From the NCBI GenBank assembly GCA_951406725.2, contig OX597826.1, forward strand, positions 58,342,001 through 58,406,000: a stretch of DNA of 64,000 nt, in the 5' to 3' direction. Below the pieces are notes generated by a model that was given only the letters and a program-made list of their open reading frames with translations, was not told the DNA's origin and ran no database searches. Positions 1,661 to 52,212 of the stretch are shown piece by piece. The position numbers and the translations under genes were made by a program. The stretch comes from Octopus vulgaris (lineage: Eukaryota). The first letter of the stretch is position 1. Every line of letters begins with the position of its first letter.

Positions 1661-1715
1661 ACATTCCTGAAATTCCTGACATTTCAGACATTCCTGACAT
1701 TACTGACATTCCAGA
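1661..1715 (+). repeat. 9-bp repeat, block 3
   Basis: acattcctga/gacattccag units leading into the 59-bp array. Confidence 0.9.
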
Positions 1716-4700
1716 ACAAGGGGAGGAAGGAATGTTGAACATTCCAGAGTGGGGGATTCAGAGGTGAAGGGGAGGAAGTGGAGGAAGGAATGTTGAACAT
1801 TCCTGAGAGGGGGATTTGAGAGGTGAAGGGGAGGAAGGGGAGGAGGGAATGTTGAACATTCCAGAGAGGGAGAGGAATGAATTTTGAACATTCCAGAGAG
1901 GGGGATTTGACAGGTGAAGGGGAGGAAGGGGAGGAAGGAATGTTGAACATTCCAGAGAGAGGGATTTGAGAGTTGAAGGGAGGAAGGGGAGGAAAAATCG
2001 TTGAAAATTCCAGAGAGGGGGATTTGAAAGGTGAAGGGGAGGAAGGTGAGAGGGAACGCTGAACATTCCAGAGAGGGGGATTTGAGAGGACAAGGGGAGG
2101 AAGAGGAGGAAGGAATGTTGAATATTCAAGAGAGGGGGATTTGAGAGGTGAAGGAGAGGAAGGGGAGGAAGGAATGTTGAACATTCCTGAGAGGGGATTT
2201 AGGAGGAGAAGGGGATGAAGGAAAGTTGAACATTCCTGAGAGGGGGATTTGAGAGGTGAAAGGGAGGAAAGGGAGGAAGGATCTTTGAACATTCCTGAGA
2301 GGGGGATTTGAGAGGTGAAGGGGAGGCAGGGGAGGAAGGATCGTTGAACATTCCAGAGAGAAGGAAATGTGAGAGGTGAAGGGGAGGAAGGGGTGGAAGG
2401 AACGTTGAACATTTCTGAGAGGGGGATTTGAGAGGAGAAGGGGAGGAAGCGGAGGAAGGAATGTTGAACATTCCTGAGAGGGGGATTTGCGAGGTGAAGG
2501 GGAGGAAGGGGAGGAAGGATTGTTGAACATTCCAGAGAGGTGGATTTGAGAGGTGAAGGGGAGGAAGGGGAGGAAGGAAGGTTGAACATTCCAGAGTGGG
2601 GGTTTGAGAGGCGAAGGGGAGGAAAGGGTGGAAGGAATATTGAACATTCCGGAGAGAGGGATTTGAGCAGTGAAGGGGAGGAAGGAAAGGATGGAATGTT
2701 GAACATTCCAGAGAAGGGGAGGAGGAAAGAATTTTGAACATTCCTGAGAGGAGGATTTCAGAGGTGAAGGGGAGGGAGAGGAGAAAGGAATGTTCAACAT
2801 TCCAGAGAGGGGGATTTTAGAGGAGAAGGGGAGGAAGGGGAGGAAGGATTGTTCAACATTCCAGAGAGGGGGATTTTAGAGGAGAAGGGGATGAAGGGGA
2901 GGAAGGATTGTTGAACATTCCAGAGAGGGGGATTTGAGAGGTGAAGGGGAGGAAGGGGAGGGAGGAATGTTGAACATTCCAGAGAGGGGGATTTGAGAGG
3001 TGAATGGGAGGAAGGGGAGGGAGGAATGTTGAACATTCCAGAGAGGGGGATTTGAGAGGTGAAGGGGAGGAAGGGGAGGAAGGAATGTTCAACATTCCAG
3101 AGAGGGGGATTTTAGAGGAGAAGGGGAGGAAGGGGAGGAAGGAATGTTGAACATTCCAGAGAGGGGGATTTGAGAGGTGAAGGGGAGGAAGGGGAGGGAG
3201 GAATGTTGAACATTCCTCAGAGGGGGGTTTGAGAGGTGAAGGGGAGGAAGAGGAGAAAGGAATGTTCAACATTCCACAGAGGGGGATTTTAGAGGAGAAG
3301 GGGAGGAAGGGGAGGAAGGATTGTTCAACATTCCAGAGAGGGGGATTTTACAGGAGAAGGGGATGAAGGGGAGGAAGGATTGTTGAACATTCCAGAGAGG
3401 GGGATTTGAGAGGTGAAGGGGAGTAAGGGGAGGATGGATTGTTGAACATTCCAGAGAGGGGGATTTGAGAGGTGAAGGGGAGGAAGGGGAGGGAGGAATG
3501 TTGAACATTCCAGAGAGGGGGATTTGAGAGGAGAATGGGAGGAAGGGGAAGTAGGAATGTTGAACATTCCAGAGAGGGGGATTTGAGAGGTGAAGGTGAG
3601 GGAGGGGAGGTAGGAATGTTGAACATTCTAGAGAGGGGGATTTGAGAGGAGAATGGGAGGATGTGGAGGGAGGAATGTTGAACATTCCACAGAGTGGGAT
3701 TTGAGAGGTGAAAGGGAGGAAGGGGAGAAAGGAATGTTCAACATTCCACAGAGGGGGATTTTAGAGGAGAAGGGGAGGAAGGATTGTTCAACATTCCAGA
3801 GAGGGGGATTTTAGAGGAGAAGGGGAGGAAGGGGAGGAAGGATTGTTGAACATTCCAGAGAGGGGGATTTTAGAGGAGAAGGGGAGGAAGGGGAGGGAGG
3901 AATAATGAACATTCCAGAGAGGGGGATTTGAGAGGTGAAGGGGAGGAAGGGGAGGGAGGAATGTTCAACATTCCTCCCCCCTTCCTCCCCTTCTCCTCTC
4001 AAATCCCCTCTCTGGAATGTTCAACATTCCTCCCTCCCCCTTCCTCCCCTTCACCTCTCAAATCCCCCTCTCTGGAATGTTCAACATTCCTCCCTCCCCT
4101 TCCTCCCCTTCACCTCTCAAATCCCCCTCTCTGGAATGTTGAACATTCCAGAGAGGGGGATTTGAGAGGTGAATGGGAGGAAGGGGAGGGAGGAATGTTC
4201 AACATTCCAGAGAGGGGGATTTGAGAGGAGAATGGGAGGAAGGGGAGGGAGGAATGTTGAACATTCCAGAGAGGGGGATTTGAGAGGAGAATGGGAGGAA
4301 GGGGAGGGAGGAAAGTTGAACATTCCAGAGAGGGGGATTTGAGAGGTGAAGGGGAGGGAGGAATGTTGAACATTCCAGAGAGGGGGATTTGAGAGGTGAA
4401 GGTGAGGAAGGGGAGGGAGGAATGTTGAACATTCCAGAGAGGGGGATTTGAGAGGTGAAGGGGAGGGAGGAATGTTGAACATTCCAGAGAGGGGGATTTG
4501 AGAGGTGAAGGGGAGGAAGGGGAGGGAGGAATGTTGAACATTCCAGAGAGGGGGATTTTAGAGGAGAAGGGGAGGAAGGGGAGGAAGGATTGTTGAACAT
4601 TCCAGAGAGGGGGATTTGAGAGGTGAAGGGGAGGAAGGGGAGAAAGGAATGTTCAACATTCCAGAGAGGGGGATTTCAGAGGAGAATGGGAGGAAGGGGA

Positions 4701-7700
4701 GGGAGGAATGTTGAACATTCCAGAGAGGGGGATTTGAGAGGTGAAGGGGAGGAAGGGGAGAAAGGAATGTTCAACATTCCAGAAAGGGGGATTTTAGAGG
4801 AGAAGGGGAGGAAGGGGAGGAAGGATTGTTCAATATTCCAGAGAGGGGGATTTTAGATGAGAATGGGAGGAAGGGGAGGAAAGATTGTTGAACATTCCTG
4901 ACAGGGGGATTTGAGAGGTGAAGGGAAGAAGGGGAGGGAGGAATGTTGAACATTCCAGAGAGGGAGATTTGAGATGAGAAGGGGAGGAAGAGGAGGAAGG
5001 AATGTTCAACATTCCAGAGAGGGGGATTTGAGAGGTGAAGGGTAGGAAGGGGAGAAAGGAATGTTCAACATTCCAGAGAGGGGGATTTGAGAGGAGAATG
5101 TGAGGAAGGGGAGGGAGGAATGTTGAACATTCCAGAGAGGGGGATTTGAGAGGTGAAGGGGAGGAAGGGGAGGGAGGAATGTTGAACATTCCAGAGAGGG
5201 GGATTTCAGAGGTGAAGGGGAGGAAGGGGATGGAGGAATGTTGAACATTCCAGAGAGGGGGATTTGAGAGGTGAAGGGGAGGAAGGGGAGAAAGGAATGT
5301 TCAACATTCCAGAGAGGGGGATTTGAGAGGAGAATGGGAGGAAGGGGAGGAAGGATTGTTCAACATTCCAGAGAGGGGGATTTTAGAGGAGAATGGGAGG
5401 AAGGGGAGGAAGGATTGTTGAACATTCCAGAGAGGGGGATTTTAGAGGTGAAGGGAAGAAGGGGAGGGAGGAATGTTGAACATTCCAGAGAGGGAGATTT
5501 GAGATGAGAATGGGAGGAAGGGGAGGGAGGAATGTTGAACATTCCAGAGAGGATCAAAATCCACCTCTCAGGAATGTTCAACATTCCTTCCAACGCTTCC
5601 TTCCCTTCTCCTCTCAAATCCCCCTCTCAGGAAGTTTCAACATTCCTCTCACCCCTTCCTCCCAATCTCCTCTCAAATCCCCCACTCTAGAATGTTCAAC
5701 GAACCTTCCTCCCCTTCTTCCCTTCAACTCACAAATCCCCCTCTCTAGAATGTTCAACATTCCTTCCTCCCCCTCTCTGGAATGTTCAAGATTTCATCCT
5801 CCCCTTCCTCCCCTTCACCTCTCAAATCCCTCTCTCAGGAATGTTCAACATTCCCCACTCCCCTTCCTTCCCTTCACCTCTCAAATTCCACTCTCTTCGA
5901 TGTTCAACATTGTTTCCTCCGCTTCCACCCCTTCACCTTTGAAATCCCCATCTCTGGAATGTTCAACGATCAGAACTCCCCTTCAACCCTTTCACGTCTC
6001 AAATCCCCCTCTCAGGAATGATCAACATTCCTTTCTCCCCTTCACCTCTCACATCCCCCTCACTGGAATGTTCAAAATTCATTCCTACCCTCTCTCTGGA
6101 ATGTTCAACAATCCATCCTCCTCTTTACCTCTCAAATCCCACTCTCTGGAATGTTCAACATTCCTTCCTCCCTTTCGTCACCTTCACCTATTAAATCACC
6201 CTCCCTTGAATGTTCAACGATCCTTCCTCCCATTCCTCCCTTCAACCCTGAAATCCACCTCTCTGGAATGTTTAACATTCCTTCCTCCCCTTACTCGCCT
6301 TTACCTCTCAAATCCCCCTCCCTGGAATGTTCAACATTCCTTCCTCCCCCTCTCTCGAATGTTCAACATTCTATCCTCCCCTTCCTCCTCTTCACCTCTC
6401 AAATCCCCCTCTGAGGAAAGTTCATACTTCCCCCCTTCCTACCCTTCACCTCTCAAATCCCCCTCTCTGGGATGTTCAACATTCCTTCCTCCCCTTCAAC
6501 CCTTCACCTTTGAAATCCCCCTCTCTGGAATGTTCAACGTTCCTTCCTCCCCTTCCTCCAATTCACCTCTCAAATCCCCCCTCTCAGGAATGTTCAACAT
6601 TCCTTCCTCCACTTCTCCCCTTCTACTCTCAAATACCCCTCTCAGGAATGTTCAACATTCCTCCCTCCCTTCCTCCCCTTCACCTCAGTAATCCCCCTCT
6701 CTGGAATGTTCAACAATCCTTCCTCCCCTTCATCGCCTTCACATCTCAAATCCCCCTCTCAGGAATGTTCAACATTCCTTCCATCTCTTCTCTCAAATCT
6801 CCCTCTCAGGAATGTTCGACGATCCCCTTCCTCTTTTCAACTCTCAAATCCCCCTCTCTGGAATGTTCAACGATCCTTCCTCCCCTTCCTCCCCTTCACC
6901 TCTTAAATTCCCGTCTCAGGAATTTTCAATATTCCGTCCTCCCCTTCCTCCGCTTCTCCCCTCAAATCCTCCTCTCAGGAATGTTCAACATTCCATCCTC
7001 CCCTTCCTCCGCTTCTCCCCTCAAATCCCCCTCTCAGGAATGTTCAACATTCCTCCCTCCCCTTCCTCCCATTCTCCTCTCAAATCCCCCTCCCTGGAAT
7101 GTTCAACGATCCTTCCTACCCTTGTCCCCTTCAACTCACAAATCCCCCTCTCTAGAATGTTCAATGATCCTACCTCCCCTTCCTCCCCTTCTACTCTCAA
7201 ATCTCCCTCTCTGAAATGTTCAACATTACTTCCTTCTCTTCCTCCCCTTCACCTCTCAATTCCCCCTCTCTGGAATGTTCAACATTCCTTCCTCCCCCCT
7301 CTCTGGAATGTTTAACATTCCATCCTCCCCTTCCTCCCCTTCACCTCACATATACCTCTCTCTGGAATGTTCAGCATTCCATCCTCCACTTCCTGACCTT
7401 TTCTCTCTAATCCCCTTCTCTGGAATGTTTAACATTACTTCCTCCCCTTCCTCCCCTTCACCTCTCAAATTCCCCTCTCTGCAATGTTGAACATTCCTTC
7501 CTCGCCTTCTCTGGAATGTTCAACGTTCCATCCACCCCTTCCTCCCCTTCACCTCTCAAATCCCCCTCTCTTTGATGTTCAACATTCCTTCCTCCACTTC
7601 CTCCCCTTCACCTCTAAAATCCCCTTCTCTGGAATGTTGAACATTCCTTTTTCCCCTTCCTCACCTTCACCTTTGAAATCACCCTCTCTGGAATGTTCAA

Positions 7701-9683
7701 CGATCCTTACTCCACTTCATCCCCTTCACCTCAAAATCCCCCTCTCTGGAATGTTGAACATTCCTTTCTCCCCTTCCTCCCCTTCACCTCTCAAATCCCC
7801 CTCTCTGGAATGTTCAACATTACTTCCCACCCCCTCTCTGGAATGTTCAGCATTCCATGCTCCCCATCCTCCCCTTCACGTATCAAATCCCCCTCTCAGA
7901 AATGTTCAACATTCCATCCTCCCCTTCTTCCCCTTCACCTCTCAAATCCCCCTCTCTGAATTGTTTAACATTCCTTCCTCCCCTTCCTCCCCTTCACCAC
8001 TCAAAACCCCTCTCTGGAATGTTCAACATTCCTTCCTCCCCTTCACCTCTCAAAACCCATCTCTGGAATGTTCAACATTCCTTCCTCCCCTTCCTCCCCC
8101 TCACCTCTCAAATTCCCCTTTCTGGAATGTTTAACATTCCTTCTTCCCACCTCACTGGAATGTTCAACATTCCATCCTCCTCTTCCTCCCCTTCACCTCT
8201 CAAATTCCCCTCTCATGGAATGTTCAACATTCCTTCCTACCCTTCCTCACCTCCTCCTCTCAAATCCCCCTCTCAGGAATGTTGAACATTCCTCCCTCCC
8301 CTTCCTCTACTTCACCTCTCAAATCCCCCACTCTGGAATGTTCAACGAATCTTCCTCCCCTTCTTCCCTTCAACTCTCAAATCCCCCTCTCTGTAATGTT
8401 CAACGATCCTTCCTCCCCTTCCTTCCTTTCACCTCTCAAATCCCCCTCTCTGGAATATTCAACATTCCTTCCTCCCCTTCCTCCCCATCACCTCTCAAAT
8501 CCCCCTCTCTGGAATGTTCAACATTCCTTCCTCCCCCTCTCTGGAATGTTCAACATTCCTTCCTCCCCTTCACCTCTCAAATCCCCCTCTCAGGAATGTT
8601 CAACATTCCCCACTCCCCTTCCTTCCCTTCACCTCTCAAATTCCCCTCTCTGCGATGTTCAACATTCTTTCCTCCCCTTCCACCCCTTCACCTTTGAAAT
8701 CCCCCTCTCTGGAATGTTCAACGATCAGAACTCCCCTTCAACCCCTTCACGTCTCAAATCCCCCTTTCAGGAATGTTCAACATTCCTTCCTCCCCTTCCT
8801 CCCCTTCTCCTCTCAAATCACCCTCTCAGGAATGTTCAACAATCCAACCCATTCCTACCCTTCTCCTCACAAATCCCCCTCTCTGGAATGTTAAACATTC
8901 TATCCTCCCCTTCAGCTCTCACATCCCCCTCACTGGAATGTTCAAAATTCATTCTTACCCCCTCTCTAGAATTTTCAACATTCACCCCAACACTTCCTCC
9001 CCTTCACCTATCACATCCACCTCACTTGAATGTTCAAAATTCATTCCTACCCCACTCTCTGGAATGTTCAGCATTCCCCCCTCCCCTTCCTCCCTTCAAC
9101 CCTGAAATCAACCTCTCTGGAATGTTTAACATTCCTTCCTCCCCTTACTCGCCTTTACCTCTAAAATCCCCTTCCAGAGAGGGGGATTTGAAAGGTGAAG
9201 GGGAGGAAGGAATGTTGAACATTCCAGAGAGGGGGGTTATAGAAGTGAAGTGAGGAAGGGCAGGGAGGAATGTTGAAAATTCCTGAGAGGGGGATTTGAA
9301 AGGTGAAGGGCTGGAAGGGGAGGAAAGAATGTTGAAAATTCCAGAGAGGGGGATTTGAGAGGTGAAGGGGAGGAAGGGGAGGACGGATCGTTGAACATTC
9401 CAGAGAGGGGGATTTGAGAAGTGAAGGGGAGGAATGGGAGGATGTTAAATTTTACAGTGAGGGGGATTTGAGAGGTGAAGAGAGGAAGGAATGTTGAACA
9501 TTCCATAGAGATGGGCTTGAGAGGTGAAGGGGAGGAAGAGGAGGTAGGATCGTTGAATATTCCAGAGAGGGGGATTTCAGAGTTGAATGAGAGGAAGGAT
9601 AGGAAGGAATGTTGAACATTCCAGAGAGGGGTATTTGAGTGTTGAAGGTGAGGAAGGGTAGGAAGGATCGTCGAACATTCCAG
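1716..9683. repeat. 59-bp satellite with a 17-bp palindrome and a purine-rich arm; four orientation switches
   Basis: Consensus GGAATGTT(G/C)AACATTCC-AGAGAGGGGGATTTGAGAGGTGAAGGGGAGGAAGGGGAGGAA. G-rich on + at 1716-3965, 4141-5552 and 9172-9683; C-rich at 3966-4140 and 5553-9171. Shortened ~30 and ~50 bp variants occur. Confidence 0.95.
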
Positions 9684-9905
9684 ACATCCCTTTCATTCCT
9701 GACATTCCAGACATTCCAGACATTCCCGACATTCCAGTCATTCCTGACATTGCAGACATTCCTGATATTCCTGTCATTCCATTCATTCCGGACATTCCTG
9801 AAATTCCAGACATCCCCGACATCCCAGACATCTCTGACAATCCAGACATTTCTGGAATGTCTGGATTGTGAGGAGTGTCTGGAATATCAGGAATGTCTGG
9901 AATGA
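9676..9905. repeat. 9-bp repeat, block 4, inverting at ~9851
   Basis: gacattcc units to 9850, then ggaatgtc units; hairpin TCCAGACATT-tctgg-AATGTCTGGA at the switch. Confidence 0.9.
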
Positions 9906-19316: not shown

Positions 19317-19386
19317 ACATACGCGTGTATGTGCGTGCTCCTGTGTGTTGTGAGAGTTTTATGTGTAAAGAAGTTTAACAAAATAA

Positions 19387-21992
<2,606 letters not shown>

Positions 21993-23010: not shown

Positions 23011-23011
<1 letters not shown>

Positions 23012-23366
23012 ACTGGAACAAAAACGCAATAGAGGACAAAACATTCGGACAGATAGACGATACAAAGGCAGACAGGAAAAACAAAAAAGGACCGGTCATT
23101 CGTGGCCTTCTTTCTTCAGTCAAGTTACCAGATGTCCTTACAGTTTCGGGTAGTTACACTTGAGACTCTTCAATCTGGTTGCCCCCCCCCCAAGTCTAAG
23201 CTAAGAGCATTAGATTTTTTGTAAGAAAGGGAGCGAATGTGTAAGGCAACAAAGATAAAAAACGGAAACATTGTACACAATCAGTTGGGCTGCCGTGTAA
23301 AAATTGAAAACCTTAAAGCAGGAACTTAGGAGATAGACATAAGAGGTGTGGCGGTCGGCAGTCAAG

Positions 23367-34717: not shown

Positions 34718-35128
34718 TCTCTCTTTTACTCTTTTACTCTTTTACTTGTTTCAGTCATTTGACTGCGGCCATGCTGGAGCACCGCCTTTAGTCGAGCAAA
34801 TCGACCCCGGGACTTATTCTTTTGTAATCCCAGTACTTATTCTATCGGTCTCTTTTTGCCGAACCGTTAAGTGACGGGGACGTAAACACACCAGCATCGG
34901 TTGTCAAGCAATGCTAGGGGGACAAACACAGACACACAAACACACACATACATATATATATATATACATATATACGACGGGCTTCTTTCAGTTTCCGTCT
35001 ACCAAATCCACTCACAAGGCATTGGGCGGCCCGAGGCTATAGCAGAAGACACTTGCCCAAGATGCCACGCAGTGGGACTGAACCCGGAACCATGTGGTTG
35101 GTTAGTAAGCTACTTACCACACAGCCAC
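34718..35128 (-). mobile_element. SINE family A
   Basis: Reverse complement of the family A sequence. Confidence 0.92.
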
Positions 35129-35169: not shown

Positions 35170-36048
35170 TGAGGGCTTCGAATGTCCCGTCCTGTGGTTC
35201 TTGTGTCGTCTCTGTGGCGTTTCACGTTCTTGTCCATGTCTGTAATTATTTTTACTGTTTACCTATATAATCGGCGGCTACGTATCCACAATTGTCCTTA
35301 TACGATAAGTATATTTTTTTCTCAAGCATTGATACGACTCTTAATCTTTCTTTCTCTCTCTCTCCCTCCCTTATTCCCCCTCCTTTCTTTCCCTCTCCAT
35401 CCGTTTCCCCCCCCCTTCTACGTTTCTCTATCTCTCTCACCTCCAGCCCCCTCGATCTGTCTCTTTCTTCTCCTCCCTCGTCCACCTTCTCTCTCTTTTC
35501 ATCTGTCCCTTTCTCTTGTCTTTTGTTCTCACGTGACCGCTGACCGCTGTTGAGCGCTCTTTTCGTTCCAGCAGCCGTTGAAGCAACACGTACTTGTTCG
35601 TCTCCCTGTGGCCATTAGGCACAACTTCATAAGCCAGCCCCATGCTCAATTCGTCCTGTCGAAAGACCCTTGTCCTACGTCCTGGTTTTGTTTTGTTGTT
35701 TATTTTTTATACTTTATTTTTACCGTTATTGTTTTTACGTGTTTGTATTCTTATTGTTGTCACGTATTCGGTATTTTTGTTCGTGTACTTCGTTCGTTTT
35801 CCGTCCTCGTGTTGTATACATTCGAAGCTTTCTTCCAGGGGATCTAATGCACTTGGCTTAGATTTCCCGTGGCGGGCTGCCCATATCGGAGCAATCTCAA
35901 GATTAATCAGCCGAAATTGCTAAGATGATCTGGTTCTTGACTGATGACTGAGGGCTTCGAATGTCCCGTCCTGTGGTTCTTGTGTCGTCTCTGTGGCGTT
36001 TCACGTTCTTGTCCATGTCTGTAATTATTTTTACTGTTTACCTATATA
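35170..36048 (+). mobile_element. non-autonomous Penelope-like/retrozyme-like element with identical 100-bp direct terminal repeats
   Basis: 35170-35269 is identical to 35949-36048 (period 779 bp); possible GIY-YIG C-terminal relic YNRRLRI/QLSLYDKYIFFSSIDTTLN at 35266-35345; hammerhead boxes at 35881-35956. Confidence 0.7.
35881..35956 (+). ncRNA. candidate permuted hammerhead ribozyme (best-preserved copy)
   Basis: CCAtATC-gg-AGCAA-UC|UCAAGA-uuaaucagcc-GAAA-UUGCU-aagau-GAUCUGG-u-UCUUGA-CUGAUGA; stems I and III perfect. Confidence 0.62.
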
Positions 36049-36124
36049 TATATATATATATATATATATAGGTAGATAGATAGATAGATAGAACTATATA
36101 AAGATAGATATGTTTCATAGATAA

Positions 36125-36379: not shown

Positions 36380-36499
36380 GCTTGTCTGTCTGCCTGACTG
36401 TCTGTCTGCCTGTCTGTCTGTATGTATGCTTATCTATCTTTACCTCTCTCTCTCTCTCTCTCTCTAGACATATACACACACATATATATATGCATACAT

Positions 36500-36531
<32 letters not shown>

Positions 36532-36785
36532 GTAGGTATATATATATATGCTAGTCTGTCCGTCTGCCTTTCTGTCCCCCGCCCCAGTTGTGCATCTCCC
36601 TGTCTGGGCTGTATTTTGGTGACATGCATACATGAGTTCGCGTGTCGCCATCTAGCCCTCCTAGTTACAATACGCTCTGGGGCGCGAATGAAGTTGAAAT
36701 ATTTGCTGAGTTAATTAACGCTGAATAAGCAGAACTCTACGTACACGCACGCACACACACAAACACACACACGCACGCACACACA

Positions 36786-36820
<35 letters not shown>

Positions 36821-37274
36821 GCACACATACAGACATACACGCATTGAGAGACACCCATATACATATATATATATACATGTTCCTGTCTGTTACACAATTT
36901 AAAAAGAAAAGAATAGGGAAAATTCTGAAACCAGCGACAAAAATTATCTCCGCCTCCAAAGAAGTAAAATGAAATGAAAAAACCAGTAGAAATTTTGGGA
37001 AGAAAATTAGCAAAAAAATTGAAAAATATAAAAAGTTGAACGGACAGTAGAAATTCGATAAATGCCCGGATGCTAATAAAATTATTATCATTATCATTAT
37101 TCGCTGGCAAAATCTTCCCCTAGCTCCAATTAGATTTTAAATGAGTACTCTTACTTATGAATTCCTGACCTGCAAGTTGACACAAATCTCATTAAAATAA
37201 AGAACATGCGTGGTGTGACTAAGAGATGTAGAAAGAAGTGATGATTGTGCGTGTCAGAGAAAGTGGGAAGTGGG

Positions 37275-37311
<37 letters not shown>

Positions 37312-37441
37312 GAGGCGAAAGGGAAGGAAGGTGTGAGGGAAAAAGAGGGGGAAAAAGGAGGGAGGTAGAGATCGGTAAAGTTAGAAATAGCAAAAAGTGT
37401 GTGTGTGTGTGTGCATGTATGTACGTATGTTATGTATGTAT

Positions 37442-37539
<98 letters not shown>

Positions 37540-37742
37540 CATATATGTATATGCATATGTATATATTGTTATATATATATGTATATGTACATATATGCAT
37601 ACATATATATACATATATATATGCATATATATATATATTGTTATATATATATGTATATGTACATATATGCATACATATATATACATATATATATGCATAT
37701 ATATATATATAGTTATGCGCGTGTATATATATACCTGTGTTC

Positions 37743-37774
<32 letters not shown>

Positions 37775-37775
37775 C

Positions 37776-37852
<77 letters not shown>

Positions 37853-38305
37853 AAGAGAAAGAAATAGATAGAGGGAGAAAACTGTTCGAGTGCATTTATA
37901 TAAATGCTTGTGTCCGTATGTATGCACACTTACGTATATACGATAGATATTTGTACGTAGATAACACATATATGTGGACCCATACATTTATGGGTAGACA
38001 GAATCTGATACAGAGGCAATTAATTGTGGTTGAAATTTCGAAATTCAAATAATAAAAAAGGAAAAAGCACACGAAGAACAATACATAATTATTCCCAAAT
38101 ATGTTAATTCATTATGCTTAGACGTTTATCGCCTGCAAACTTATGCACATTATATCGCCCCTAAACTAGCTAACACCCCGTTATATCGTCGACCATTTTT
38201 TTCCCCTGTATTTCTTCATGAAATTTTTTGATGATGGGTTTTATATTTTGTTGCTTTTTCCTGGTCTCGAAATACCGTTACGTAATAGGGATGGTCTGTA
38301 GCAAT

Positions 38306-38307
38306 AG

Positions 38308-38360
<53 letters not shown>

Positions 38361-38531
38361 GTGATGGTGATGACGACGGTAAGGATTATGGCAGTGATGA
38401 TGACGATGGTGATGATGGTGACAATGGCGATGATTATGATGATGATAAATGATGATGATGGTGATGACGACGGTAAGGATTAGACGGTGATGATGATGAT
38501 GGTGATGATGGTGACAATGGCGATGATGATT

Positions 38532-38590
<59 letters not shown>

Positions 38591-38601
38591 TGTGGTTGTG
38601 G

Positions 38602-38635
<34 letters not shown>

Positions 38636-38797
38636 ATCGACGACAGTGAGGATTATGGCAGTGATGATGACGATGGTGATGATGGTGACAATGGCGATGA
38701 TTATGATGATGATGATGATGATGATGGTGATGACGACGGTAAGGATTAGACGGTGATGATGATGATGGTGATGATGGTGACAATGGCGATGATGATT

Positions 38798-38850
<53 letters not shown>

Positions 38851-39066
38851 TGTGGTTGTGGTGATGATGATGATGATGATGAAGATGATGATGATGATAA
38901 CGACGACAGTGAGGATTATGGCAGTGATGATGACGATGGTGATGATGGTGACAATGGCGATGATTATGATGATGATGATGATGATGATGGTGATGACGAC
39001 GGTAAGGATTAGACGGTGATGATGATGATGGTGATGATGGTGACAATGGCGATGATGATTATGATA

Positions 39067-39110
<44 letters not shown>

Positions 39111-39121
39111 TGTGGTTGTGG

Positions 39122-39158
<37 letters not shown>

Positions 39159-39400
39159 AACGACGACAGTGAGGATTATGGCAGTGATGATGACGATGGT
39201 GATGATGGTGACAATGGCGATGATTATGATGATGATGATGATGATGATGACGATGACGACGATGACGACGATGACGATGATATTGTTGCTGATGATGATG
39301 ATAACGCGGAGGAGAAGGACAATGCTGCTGCTGCTGATGATAATGATGTTGCTTATGATAATCATAATTATGATGATAATGATGATGAAGATTATGATGA
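38306..39400. repeat. (GAT)n-derived higher-order repeat, ~263-266 bp unit
   Basis: gacgacggtaaggattagacggtg recurs at ~38466, 38732 and 38995; variant version at 46204-47330. Confidence 0.85.
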
Positions 39401-39597
39401 TGATGAAGATGATGATGGTGGCGGTGGTGGTGCTGGTGGTGTTGCTGTTGCTGCTGTTGTTGCTGTTGCTGTTGCTGTTGCTGGTGGCGACGATATGGTT
39501 GCTGACGATGATGAAGGTGATTACGAAAGGGATGATGATGATGATGGTGAGAAGGAGGAAGAGTAGGAAGGAAGACGTCAATAATGGTGTTGGCAAA

Positions 39598-39639
<42 letters not shown>

Positions 39640-39912
39640 AGCAATAAAATAATTATAATTATTGTTACTATTGGCATAATAACAACGATGAGACTCTCAT
39701 GGTTAATGATTAAGGCAAGTACAAAAACAAAAAAAAAAAATAATAGACAAAAAAGGAAAACAAAAAAAACAAACAATTATAGAAAGAGTGGGAACAATAA
39801 TACAGCAATTGTGACAGCAACAATAACAAAAAACACCACCATCATCAACATCATCATCACAACCGTTACCGCTTCCATTACCAACGACTACAACAACAAC
39901 AACAACAACAAC

Positions 39913-39951
<39 letters not shown>

Positions 39952-40115
39952 TAATAATAATTAATAATAATAATAATGATAATAATAATAATGAATAATA
40001 ATACTAATACTAATAATAATAATAATAATAATAATTAATAATAATTAATAATAATAATAATGCTAATAATAATAATGATAATACTACTACTACTACTACT
40101 ACTACTAATAATAAT

Positions 40116-40175
<60 letters not shown>

Positions 40176-40184
40176 TGATGATGG

Positions 40185-40215
<31 letters not shown>

Positions 40216-40258
40216 GGTGGTGGTGGTGGTGGTGGTGATGATGATAATAATAATCATG

Positions 40259-40510
40259 ATTCTTTCAAATTTTGGTACAAGGCCTGCAAGTGTGAGCGTG
40301 GGGAGAGGGTGGTTAGTCGATTTACATCGAATCAAGAACTTTATTGATACTTTATTTTATAAGCCCCGGAAGCAGGAAAGGCGAAGCTGACCTCTGCGAG
40401 ATTTGAACTCGAGATGTAAAGTGCCGGAAGAAATACTGCAAGGCAAATTTTTTTGTTGTTTTTTTTTTTGTTTTTTGTTCAGCTCTTTCAACGATTCAGC
40501 CGCTCCAGTA
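40259..40510 (-). mobile_element. old SINE family B copy (duplicate at 48261-48510)
   Basis: ttagtcgatttacatcga...ggaaaggcgaagctgacctc...atttgaactc. Confidence 0.7.
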
Positions 40511-40632
40511 CCCTTGTTCTCAATCAAATAATAAGCACCACAACAACAACCTCAACAACAGTAATAATAACACCAATAGCAATAATAGTAATAACGAGAA
40601 CACCACCATCAATAATAATAATTATTATTATT

Positions 40633-40756
<124 letters not shown>

Positions 40757-41036
40757 AAGAAGAAGAAGAAGAAGAAGAAGAAGAAGAAGAAGAAGAAGAA
40801 GAAGAAGAAGAAGAAGAAGAAGAAGAAGAAGAAGAAGAAGAAGAAGAAGAAGAAATGCAATGATTTCTATTATTGGCCATGATAGTTGAAGACAGTGAAT
40901 ACCAGAAGACAAAATGCAAACACAAAATCGATTTCCTTGAAGTTACGCAGATCATTAAGAAACAAATGTTATAACAAAAAAAAACAAACAAAATCAGGAA
41001 GAGGAGGAAAGCTTCTACATCAGGTGAATAATAATA

Positions 41037-41105
<69 letters not shown>

Positions 41106-41239
41106 TCAAAAAGGAAATAGAAGCAGCGCTAGTGTAAAAACCATCATCGACCACATATACTCAACGTATGTATCGTAGCCCACCGGAAATACACAAGATA
41201 TATACGTTAAGTATATGTGGTCGATGATGCTTGATGGTA

Positions 41240-41324
<85 letters not shown>

Positions 41325-41606
41325 TAATAATAATAATAAGGTTAATATGGGCTTAAGCTAGGGAATAAGATTGTTTGACAGAGAATAAGGAAGGAACATT
41401 TTACAAAATACCGACAGACGTTTAACTGAAAGACACTATCCGTCAACGTCTTCCATGAATTAAACATTAATATTTCGTAAGTAACAATGAAAGAGGGATG
41501 AAAATGTCATTGCATTAATGTCTTTGTGTAATTTTATTACCCTTTTGCGTCGCCATCTTACGAAATAGTAACAAACAACGAATATATATATATATATATA
41601 TATGTG

Positions 41607-41688
<82 letters not shown>

Positions 41689-42088
41689 CTTATCCAGGAT
41701 TAAAAGGGGAATACTTATTTGTATAAAGCTCTGCATCATAAGAAATGTTATCATCTGATGTAATTAATGATGGCAATTAAATAAAAGACTTGATTTTATG
41801 ATGAAAATTTGCGAAGTTAAACCGAAAATCCATAAATGCACACAGATGAAATACGCTTCTATATTACATTTATATTCCGCATCTACAGACTGTCACCAAA
41901 TATTAAAATTCTGCTAAATTTCCGTACAAAATTTCGAGAGAAAACTACTCCAACTTGAAAGAAAATTTCAATCCCATCAGGTTATGCAAATGTTTTACGG
42001 TGGCACCCGTATAACTTCGTTTCAAATAGCTTGAAATATCTCTAAGGGCAGACGTGTGTCGTTCTAAATTTCGAGCCTATGGAGATAT

Positions 42089-42238
42089 AGGAGTGGCTGT
42101 GTGGTAAGTAGCTTGCTTACCAATCACATGGTACCGGGTTCAGTCCCACTGCGTGGCACCTATGTCTTCTACTATAGCCTCGGGCCGACCAAAGCCTTGT
42201 GAGTGGATTTGGTAGACGGAAACAGAAAGAAGCCTGTC

Positions 42239-42285
<47 letters not shown>

Positions 42286-42513
42286 CATGTGTGCATATGT
42301 TTGTGTGTCTGTGTTTGTCCCCACCCAACATTACTTGACAACCGATGCTGGTGTGTTTACGTCCCCATAACTTAGCGGTTCGGCAAAAGAGACTGATAGA
42401 ATAAGTACTAGGCTTACATAGAATAAGTCCTGGGGTCGAGTTGCTCGACTAAAGGCGGTGCTCTAGCATGGCCACAGTCACATGACTGAAACAAGTAAAA
42501 GAGTAAAAGAGAG
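42089..42513 (+). mobile_element. SINE family A (duplicate at 50166-50583)
   Basis: Family A match. Confidence 0.92.
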
Positions 42514-42930
42514 TATACATGTATCAACTTCTAAAGTGTATTCATAGAGAGAAACAAAGAAAATGAGTTTAGGTGAGCATAAAAGAACGAGGAAGAAAAA
42601 GCTTATCACATAAGCCACAGAAATTAAAAGATTCTTTGTAGAAGCCAAGAACATAGTGAAAAGAAAAGAGAAAAGGATTTAGATAAGGACAAAACAACGG
42701 AAAACATTTTTTTTTGAAAATTACAAAAGACAGAATTAAAGCAGAATTCTAAAATATTCCACAAAAATATATAAAGGTACTCTTCTCTATGTCCATTATT
42801 TGCGTGATTTGTGAGACGAATTGGATACAAGGAATAACTAATAACCATATTAAATTTAATGGACTGATTTGAAGAAATAGATAGTCTAATAAGTTAAGCT
42901 ATAGAAGTGCAACTATTAATTACAAACAGA

Positions 42931-43304
42931 AACAAGAGCACTCAGCGAGCGCAAACCTCCGCCAAGGTAACACCGATGTCCTCTCAACGGTTAACCGTAG
43001 ATGATATTTAAAATGAGAATATCTGAAATAAACTTGACTGTTCTCACAAACAAGACCACTAAAAATGAACCCGACCACCATAAAAAATTAAATAAAAAAC
43101 CGGAGAAATAATCCAGAATCCTTTTCCAGTACCGGATTGATCCAAAAATCTAATCAGTTCATGCCAGTCACAATGCCAAACATCCGTGCAAGTTTCATCC
43201 GAATCCATACCGGGGTTCTTGAGATATCTTGTCTACAGACAACCACAGAAACAAACAAACACAACTAAAAGCAATACCACCGCCTTCGCTAAGGCGGAGG
43301 TAAT
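42931..43304. mobile_element. Helentron/HINE-like non-autonomous element (duplicate at 51000-51373)
   Basis: Subterminal inverted repeats ACCTCCGCC/GGCGGAGGT, terminal hairpin ccgccttcgctaaggcgg, internal (AAAC)n, AA/TT-type ends. Confidence 0.7.
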
Positions 43305-43519
43305 AAAACAACAAGAAAATAAGTTCTTACACATACAAACATACCAAATATAAACAAGAATGCGCGAACTAATCTCCTCATCTGATACAGAGGAAAGATT
43401 AAACTAGGTGTGTGTTCAAAAATATAGGAGCATAAGGGTACCTGTTGTCATCAGTAAGTACAAAGATTATGACCAAAAAACATTGCCGAACGAATTAATG
43501 AGTTATATATATATCTACA

Positions 43520-43906
43520 GGGACAAGCGTGGTTGCGTGGTACGAAGCTTGCTTCTCTACCACACGGTTCCGAGTTCAGTCTCACTGTGTGGTACCTTGG
43601 GCAATTGCTTTCTACTATAGCCTTGGACCAACCAAAGCCTTGTGAGAGGATTTAGTGAATGGAAACTGAAAGAAGCCCGTGTTAGTATGTATATATATTT
43701 TATGTGTGTATCGTTGTATCTGTATTTGTCTCTCCACCATCACTTGACAACCGATATTTATGTCACCATAACTGAGCAGTCCAGCAAAAGAGACATATAG
43801 TATAAGTACTAGGTTTACAAAGAATAAGTCCTGGGGGGGTCGATTTCTTTGACTAAAACCCTTTAAGGGGGTGATCCAGCATGGCCGCAGTCAAATGACT
43901 GAAATA
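43520..43906 (+). mobile_element. older SINE family A copy (duplicate at 51589-51975)
   Basis: Diverged head; tail ccagcatggccgcagtcaaatgactgaaa. Confidence 0.85.
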
Positions 43907-44138
43907 GTGTTCTGCTAATGAGGTAGGAAGTATTGAGACCATTAGTGGAATTTTAAAGGATGACAACTTCTGTTTGCATTTTGGGAACTGAATGTTACCT
44001 GCACTGCTGCGACAATGAGTAATGAGTGATGAGTACACACGCAATACACACACATACACATACACACACGCACACACAGATACACACACGAATGCACACA
44101 CACACATACACACGAATATGCATGTATTTATATATAAA

Positions 44139-44302: not shown

Positions 44303-52212
<7,910 letters not shown>

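Follow-up and report, generated by a model that had tools for sequence, protein, structure and literature searches.

The window analysed here, 64,000 nt of the Octopus vulgaris genome (contig OX597826.1), contains at positions 35820–35962 of the forward strand a predicted self-cleaving RNA motif. We read it as a monomeric, pseudoknotted hammerhead of the SGC/CSG/GCS cyclic order which would be opened between A9 and G10.1, derived from Naiad elements and serving a non-autonomous retrozyme, and give this reading a probability of about 0.78. With much the same confidence the motif is best filed as a split-core variant of the SGC/CSG class, its function being predicted. Judged from its sequence, the carrier is a young, non-coding tandem repeat with units of 780 nt that targets (TA)n.

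The initial annotation of this region had proposed, at 35881..35956, a hammerhead in which GAAA precedes CUGAUGA, a non-circular order that implies a pseudoknot. All elements quoted there are present in the window copy exactly where it had placed them, and the strand order is as claimed. The full motif is larger. In the standard hammerhead numbering, which is used throughout, it begins with the 5' strand of a clamp helix, P0 (35820–35832), which pairs with 35950–35962 according to covariation, folding and RNAalifold. A hairpin, Pb (35835–35872), follows as the second inserted helix of a predicted four-way junction; it is indicated by folding and by compensatory changes in alignment columns 30–32. 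The 5' strand of stem II lies at 35875–35879 (G10.1 at 35875; covariation and unguided RNAalifold), and the 5' strand of the stem I–II interaction helix at 35881–35887, with its partner at 35927–35933 found in a pairing check. This helix has 3+3 bp with one mismatch in family A, the repeat family of the window copy. The segment 35890–35896 provides a strand of stem III together with U16.1 (35895) and C17 (35896). Cleavage is predicted 3' of 35896, in an AUC triplet, in agreement with the initial annotation. Stem III of the window copy has 6 bp (35890–35895 with 35916–35921). Directly downstream are located the 5' strand of stem I (35897–35902), which forms a covarying helix of 6 bp with 35935–35940, and a 5-nt linker to stem II (35903–35907), whose letters are identical to the linker given for the validated CSG-1 (PMC10085705). 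Block G (35908–35921) comprises the stem II 3' strand with C11.1 at 35912, GAAA at 35913–35916 and the second stem III strand. The stem I 3' strand and CUGAUGA (C3–A9 at 35941–35947; G5 at 35943) occupy 35935–35947, and two unpaired bases separate A9 from the P0 3' strand at 35950–35962.

CUGAUGA alone occurs in the window as often as expected by chance (13 found, 12.6 expected). The whole descriptor, consisting of core and helices, matches only once, at 35941, whereas 40 shuffles gave 0.025 matches on average. Across five subfamily consensuses, 13 of 13 core positions are invariant compared to 59 of 130 others (Fisher p = 7e-5), a favourable outcome for the box conservation suggested as a check; all four bases occur at the free position N7. 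H17 is a C in 39 and a U in two of 41 copies. Thus the entire hammerhead core is found, C3-U4-G5-A6-N7-G8-A9, G12-A13-A14, A15.1-U16.1 and H17, and the adjoining stems I, II and III all covary, by which stems I and III of the initial annotation are confirmed as real. A stem I–II tertiary interaction is present as well, as a 6–11 bp helix in all eight metagenomic matches and with only 3+3 bp in the window copy. The AUC triplet is rare among the natural hammerheads compiled in PMC1636495, yet competent. A search of Rfam at the motif site gave no ribozyme match, in line with the claim that standard tools overlook this motif.

Family-wide covariation had been put forward as a further check. In an alignment of 41 copies, 92.8% of the 978 helix cells are paired, compared to 28–47% in slid controls, and double changes are found in 11 of 24 pairs; because the 41 rows come from five related subfamilies, paired-cell counts overstate the independent events, of which there are a handful. 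Stem I is paired in 96%, with double changes in three of six pairs. Stem II, formed by the upstream strand 35875–35879 and 35908–35912, is paired in 94%, with double changes in three of five pairs. P0, Pb and this upstream stem II were all recovered by RNAalifold without guidance. Among the parsed examples several pair types occur at every stem position except 10.1–11.1, which is G-C in 13 of 13, though the search did not demand it; a G10.1–C11.1 pair is typical of the hammerheads treated in PMC4209133. A measure of further pair types fell below the shuffle mean in the 41-copy alignment. Since the 5' strand of stem II sits upstream and not after CUGAUGA, block C is split. The strand after A9 leads into P0, the other P0 strand into Pb, and Pb to G10.1; therefore, we predict that an inserted four-way junction separates A9 from G10.1 where stem II begins.

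Of all versions of this architecture, that of family A is the loosest: its interaction helix contains the mismatch, and three strands of its junction each carry two unpaired bases. In a pseudoknot-free ensemble, competing folds dominate in family A, stems I–III reach probabilities of only 0.1–0.2 and the interaction helix about 0. The 76 nt initially annotated fold no better than shuffles (z = +1.1), and single-strand folding cannot show the knot. The automatic parse chose a wrong junction in several copies, that of the window among them; for the window copy, P0 and Pb are based on covariation, the pairing check and RNAalifold. Two of eight representatives from the same genome gave no match in this parse, being decayed copies or cut stretches.

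Types SGC and CSG have been described and validated as self-cleaving (Eckert et al. 2023, PMC10085705). The claim that the window motif lies outside types I, II and III is correct insofar as GAAA precedes CUGAUGA: it is no circular permutation of CGS with a knot-free core, and Rfam hammerhead matches are absent. As a new order, however, the claim does not stand, as S-G-C had already been published and biochemically validated there. The scheme of six permutations set out in that paper takes CUGANGA and its adjacent stems as inseparable. Thus, the order is known and the split is not covered. With type SGC (HRIMA-1 and variants), as that paper depicts it, the window motif has in common the block order, all core nucleotides, the short linker from stem I to stem II and an interaction helix formed by the segment 3' of the 10.x strand and the segment 5' of the 2.x strand. 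In type SGC stem II directly follows CUGANGA, within 1–2 nt of A9, whereas P0 and Pb stand in place of that link here and the interaction helix has a further connection, at the 5' side, to stem III. What had been called an extra helix extending stem III is, by position, the stem I–II interaction helix of SGC and CSG ribozymes. Type CSG (CSG-1, CSG-2), found in DNA, has the same cyclic order and the same connection from stem II through the interaction helix to stem III; its block C is intact, however, and the molecule is opened after stem III. According to the sections of PMC10085705 on their occurrence, CSG comprises five soil-metagenome sequences of unknown host, SGC stems from environmental sequence, and neither was found in the genome of a known organism. 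The A9/G10.1 step also tolerates an insertion in the minimal hammerheads of Penelope-like elements (PLEs) and in a viroid case, with the G10.1–C11.1 pair conserved, as described in the relevant parts of PMC4209133; there one base lies between 9 and 10.1, compared to two helices and the molecule's ends here. A full-text literature search, which covered few subscription papers, yielded among the papers listed no permuted hammerhead in Naiads or octopus and no helical insertion at A9/G10.1.

The motif is part of a family A insertion at 35170–36043 on the plus strand, a 5'-truncated, non-coding tandem retroelement of 1.1 units with a fixed 3' end, which differs from the family consensus at four of 874 nt. 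One 780-nt monomer extends over 35264–36043, with the predicted cut at monomer position 633/634, and the fixed 3' end enters a (TA)n target at 36043–36070. With 35815–35970 as query, 2124 candidates were obtained from the genome (2.8 Gb, 227 contigs); the 40 that were scored are all 100% identical, and matches are often paired at the tandem spacing of 777–785 nt. Thirty fetched loci, chosen for the presence of the whole motif, represent 24 insertions, or 25 with the window copy. In 23 of 24 visible cases the 3' end is the same base followed by (TA)n, about 147 nt after the predicted cut. The 5' ends are scattered over the monomer, and the insertions measure 357 to 2084 nt, 13 of 25 exceeding one unit and the longest reaching 2.7 units. 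There are older relatives, families B (2527 candidates), C (2047 candidates), D and E; these candidate counts overlap and are not copy numbers. The inspected copies of B, C and D mostly end in (TA)n or a related microsatellite. A family B copy lies in the window at 23011–23290 on the minus strand. It is 71% identical over the motif, has C17 at 23164 and ends in (TA)n; decay of its stems II and III makes it fail the strict descriptor.

None of 120 family loci, nor the window, showed similarity to a reverse transcriptase (RT) or endonuclease in tblastn searches with 12 Naiad-type and one Neptune-type proteins, and the autonomous Naiad open reading frame (N-terminal GIY-YIG, CxC, DKA, RT) is lacking from them. 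Contigs from four sequencing runs guessed to be RNA contain family A and related families. In multi-unit insertions eight variants are common to all units and five are single-unit singletons; such unit-wide variants fit a monomer bottleneck such as a circle. As non-coding tandems of low GC content with one ribozyme per unit, these repeats resemble the animal non-LTR retrozymes, which are thought, according to the portions of the literature that treat their mobility, to move via circular RNA and a PLE protein (Cervera and de la Pena 2020, PMC7229834; Li et al. 2026, 10.64898/2026.07.22.740005). The retrozymes described there carry type I hammerheads in units of about 150–450 nt, whereas in family A the units measure 780 nt, the motif is knotted with a split core, and the 3' end lies strictly in (TA)n.

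Several other repeats are located in the window. A SINE-like repeat of 400 nt (34727–35128) lies directly upstream of the family A insertion and recurs at six other sites, with copies 84–95% identical. A large 59-nt satellite with blocks in opposite orientation extends over 1700–9700 next to arrays of 9 and 22 nt, (AAT)n is repeated 871 times with 99% purity at 19382–21992, and a tandem duplication of about 8 kb connects 36411–44138 and 44303–52212 at 95–99% identity.

If the RNA is cut after C35896, RT is expected to fall off there. At reverse-strand loci, the 5' ends that abut (TA)n number nine at 35850–35879, 40 at 35880–35909 and 17 at 35910–35939, counted with a pattern that allows less filler for upstream starts. 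The pile-up is located at 35897–35910. Of 41 loci tallied by hand from the first 100 of 316 matches, 34 start at or after 35897 and seven before (p = 7e-7), and five start exactly at 35897 (U1.1). TA/AT microhomologies occur at 18 of the 34 downstream junctions; with such sites removed, 16 starts at or after 35897 stand against three before (p = 4e-4). The pile-up may thus be an indirect sign of cleavage in vivo; a start site or RT pause could also produce a peak. Most copies read through the predicted cut and therefore need ligated or uncut RNA. Truncations close to the cut seem enriched among family D loci; these loci were not counted, because the query itself is such a truncated copy.

Naiad PLEs target (TA)n and lack canonical hammerheads, and a hammerhead 'core' or 'half core' is sometimes noted for them (Craig et al. 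2021, PMC8557442). The features listed in that source include, as in family A, the (TA)n target, partial tandems and inverted 5'-truncated copies (compare locus L013 of our set). In our analysis, a subset of Naiads carries the same motif near the 3' end. For Naiads only the flags 'HHR_core' and 'HHR_half_core' appear in the published material, and family A differs in having no open reading frame. On visual inspection, all seven elements recur at the 3' ends of Naiad_Ovul and Naiad_Obim, where their succession is identical and their sequence unrelated. The Octopus Naiad motif has 228 exact matches in this genome and none for the reversed control; it is found on the same strand downstream of Naiad RT fragments in 5 of 12 and 10 of 25 loci, with two loci common to both sets. 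By eye, in snippets around CUGANGA, at least 10 of 54 published Naiad consensuses show the same fold. The carriers are two from Octopus, three from Acropora, Clytia-3 and Morbakka-2, and probably Pomphorhynchus and Eulimnadia, these two named by file order. The tenth, the Beroe consensus, has a stem I of only 2 bp, and the nematode Naiads have the ordinary block order.

Metagenomic Naiads were taken from the best 80 of 392 loci, of which 65 have at least 150 nt after the match to the open reading frame. A descriptor that demanded only the core and stems I and III found the motif in seven of these 65 3' stretches, with no hit in antisense or in 30 shuffles. All seven also possess the upstream stem II, interaction helix, P0 and Pb, and in four of them the junction is without any unpaired base. 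A stem II contiguous with CUGANGA is possible in none of the seven. The motif is absent from the other 58 stretches, some of which are short and some of which contain other conserved motifs. Carriers are scattered on a quick RT tree, with six changes. Rfam reported no ribozyme at gathering score in 20 Naiad loci. Viral contigs yielded no Naiad relatives; none of 21 pattern matches passed the descriptor.

No sequence similarity is detectable between families A–E and this genome's Naiad motif among the best-scoring genome candidates. What A–E and Naiads share is the succession of seven helical elements, similar linkers, a position 75–150 nt from the 3' end and the target. Because architecture, position and target are shared, we infer that the motif descends from the 3' end of Naiad PLEs. 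The common 3' architecture and (TA)n target of family A and Naiads would fit a Naiad-derived non-autonomous element. With two single-protein queries, only broken Naiad copies were seen among the best-scoring candidates of this genome, the longest open frame having 292 aa; a search with a 292-aa fragment gave homologues, and one with a 139-aa fragment gave none.

Other arrangements were seen in Naiad 3' ends. At L201:4330-4430, Pb, stem II, stem III, interaction helix and GAAA are present, and downstream there is neither a stem I partner nor a CUGANGA; this is a deletion or another variant. L254 and L264 have in common, 70–95 nt past the open reading frame match, a CUGAUGA and after it a closing helix that encloses two small hairpins; GAAA is missing. 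A different conserved 3' UTR motif characterizes other Naiad clades (L227:5590-5750, L228, L249, L234, L246; L222, L230, L233, L237, L257) and was also noticed by eye in Naiad_Scon. Its block order looks twister-like by eye, a resemblance we presume; Rfam has no match for L227. A third conserved 3' UTR motif, about 50 nt long (L208:3290-3345, L211, L214, L247), may be a structured RNA or a ribozyme; Rfam has nothing that matches L208, and similar stretches were noticed by eye in Naiad_CGi and in Clytia Naiad-1 and -2. Spider, ostracod and crab Naiads show yet another arrangement in the sequences of the PMC8557442 supplement, with CUGANGA after a C-run.

In the model that we propose, the strands would follow each other as P0, Pb, stem II (5'), interaction helix, stem III-UH-stem I, linker, stem II-GAAA-stem III, interaction helix, stem I-CUGANGA and P0. 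The four-way junction would consist of P0, Pb, stem II and the G12–A9 end of the core; by the usual helix-stacking argument P0 is probably stacked on Pb, and stem II still on the core. A motif of the Naiad 3' end would here serve a non-autonomous retrozyme. Tandem transcripts would be cut after C35896 into 780-nt units, which are probably ligated to circles. A Penelope-type RT/endonuclease acting in trans may nick (TA)n and prime about 147 nt downstream of the cut. Copying round the template would account for a fixed 3' end, for 5' ends at random positions and for insertions of as many as 2.7 units, and on unligated RNA the RT would run off at U35897.

The initial annotation had sought stem II downstream of CUGAUGA, as in an ordinary type SGC with an offset stem II, or otherwise in a dimer or trans fold. 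One monomer holds every strand, therefore a dimer or trans fold is unnecessary; the pseudoknot that was named alongside it stands. The two pairings suggested for stem II both form in the window copy and lack conservation: they are paired in 34% and 63% of the alignment, and the in-register strand in 21%, compared to 94% for the upstream strand. A 4-bp pairing in the window copy, some double changes behind the 63%, and P0 as a switch, conceivable in principle, speak for such a fold, which the lack of an intact stem II in all seven independent Naiad examples makes most improbable. A real ribozyme independent of Naiads, with A–E belonging to another element such as this genome's intact Neptune-type PLE, is also quite improbable. 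The missing sequence match between A–E and the local Naiad motif would suit it, as would the 16 of 150 GIY-YIG matches (Neptune-type PLE) that contain an open frame of 781 aa and terminate in (TA)n. However, the 3' regions of 20 Neptune-type loci are without the motif, and order, linkers, position and target of the seven elements agree with Naiads. A separate matter is the current driver of family A, for which we consider the Neptune-type PLE likelier than a Naiad. This PLE is young (L097, L102, L109, L110; 781-aa open reading frame, (TA)n end) and, by eye, has a minimal hammerhead resembling type I, in which the first box deviates from CUGANGA.

The same architecture may also belong to a family A that cleaves weakly or only with protein and spreads as uncleaved tandem read-through, its 5'-end peak marking a transcription start or an RT pause. 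In work on a Poseidon PLE, insertion in vitro did not require the hammerhead, which needed protein in order to cut (Frangieh et al. 2024, PMC11167929). Along with this precedent, the weak interaction helix and competing folds of family A, the 13 of 25 insertions that pass the site repeatedly or exceed one unit, and the microhomologies at 18 of 34 junctions would be explained. We nevertheless consider weak cleavage unlikely, as the peak persists without the microhomology sites (16 versus 3) with five ends exactly at U1.1, the youngest family retains an intact core, and subfamily alleles are always found in all units of an insertion.

With the split-core hammerhead that we favour, a non-circularly permuted hammerhead would for the first time be assigned, with covariation in its support, to genomes of named organisms, and would occur in many copies in an animal. 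The motif contradicts the published assumption of a contiguous CUGANGA and stem II, which points to a blind spot in descriptor searches, and the four-way junction at the base of stem II would offer a ready site for aptamer or switch design. The genomic pile-up of 5' ends would be a rare hint of a PLE-type ribozyme cutting RNA that is used for insertion. The 'half core' of a subset of Naiads would find an explanation, and the argument that Naiads thrive without a hammerhead would be reopened. Taken one step further, at odds that we place somewhat above even, this may be a seventh hammerhead wiring, beyond the six permutations considered possible, old in Naiads of four or five animal phyla and cleaving in vivo, that in this cephalopod drives a currently spreading 780-nt circular-RNA retrozyme which has outlived its parent Naiad.
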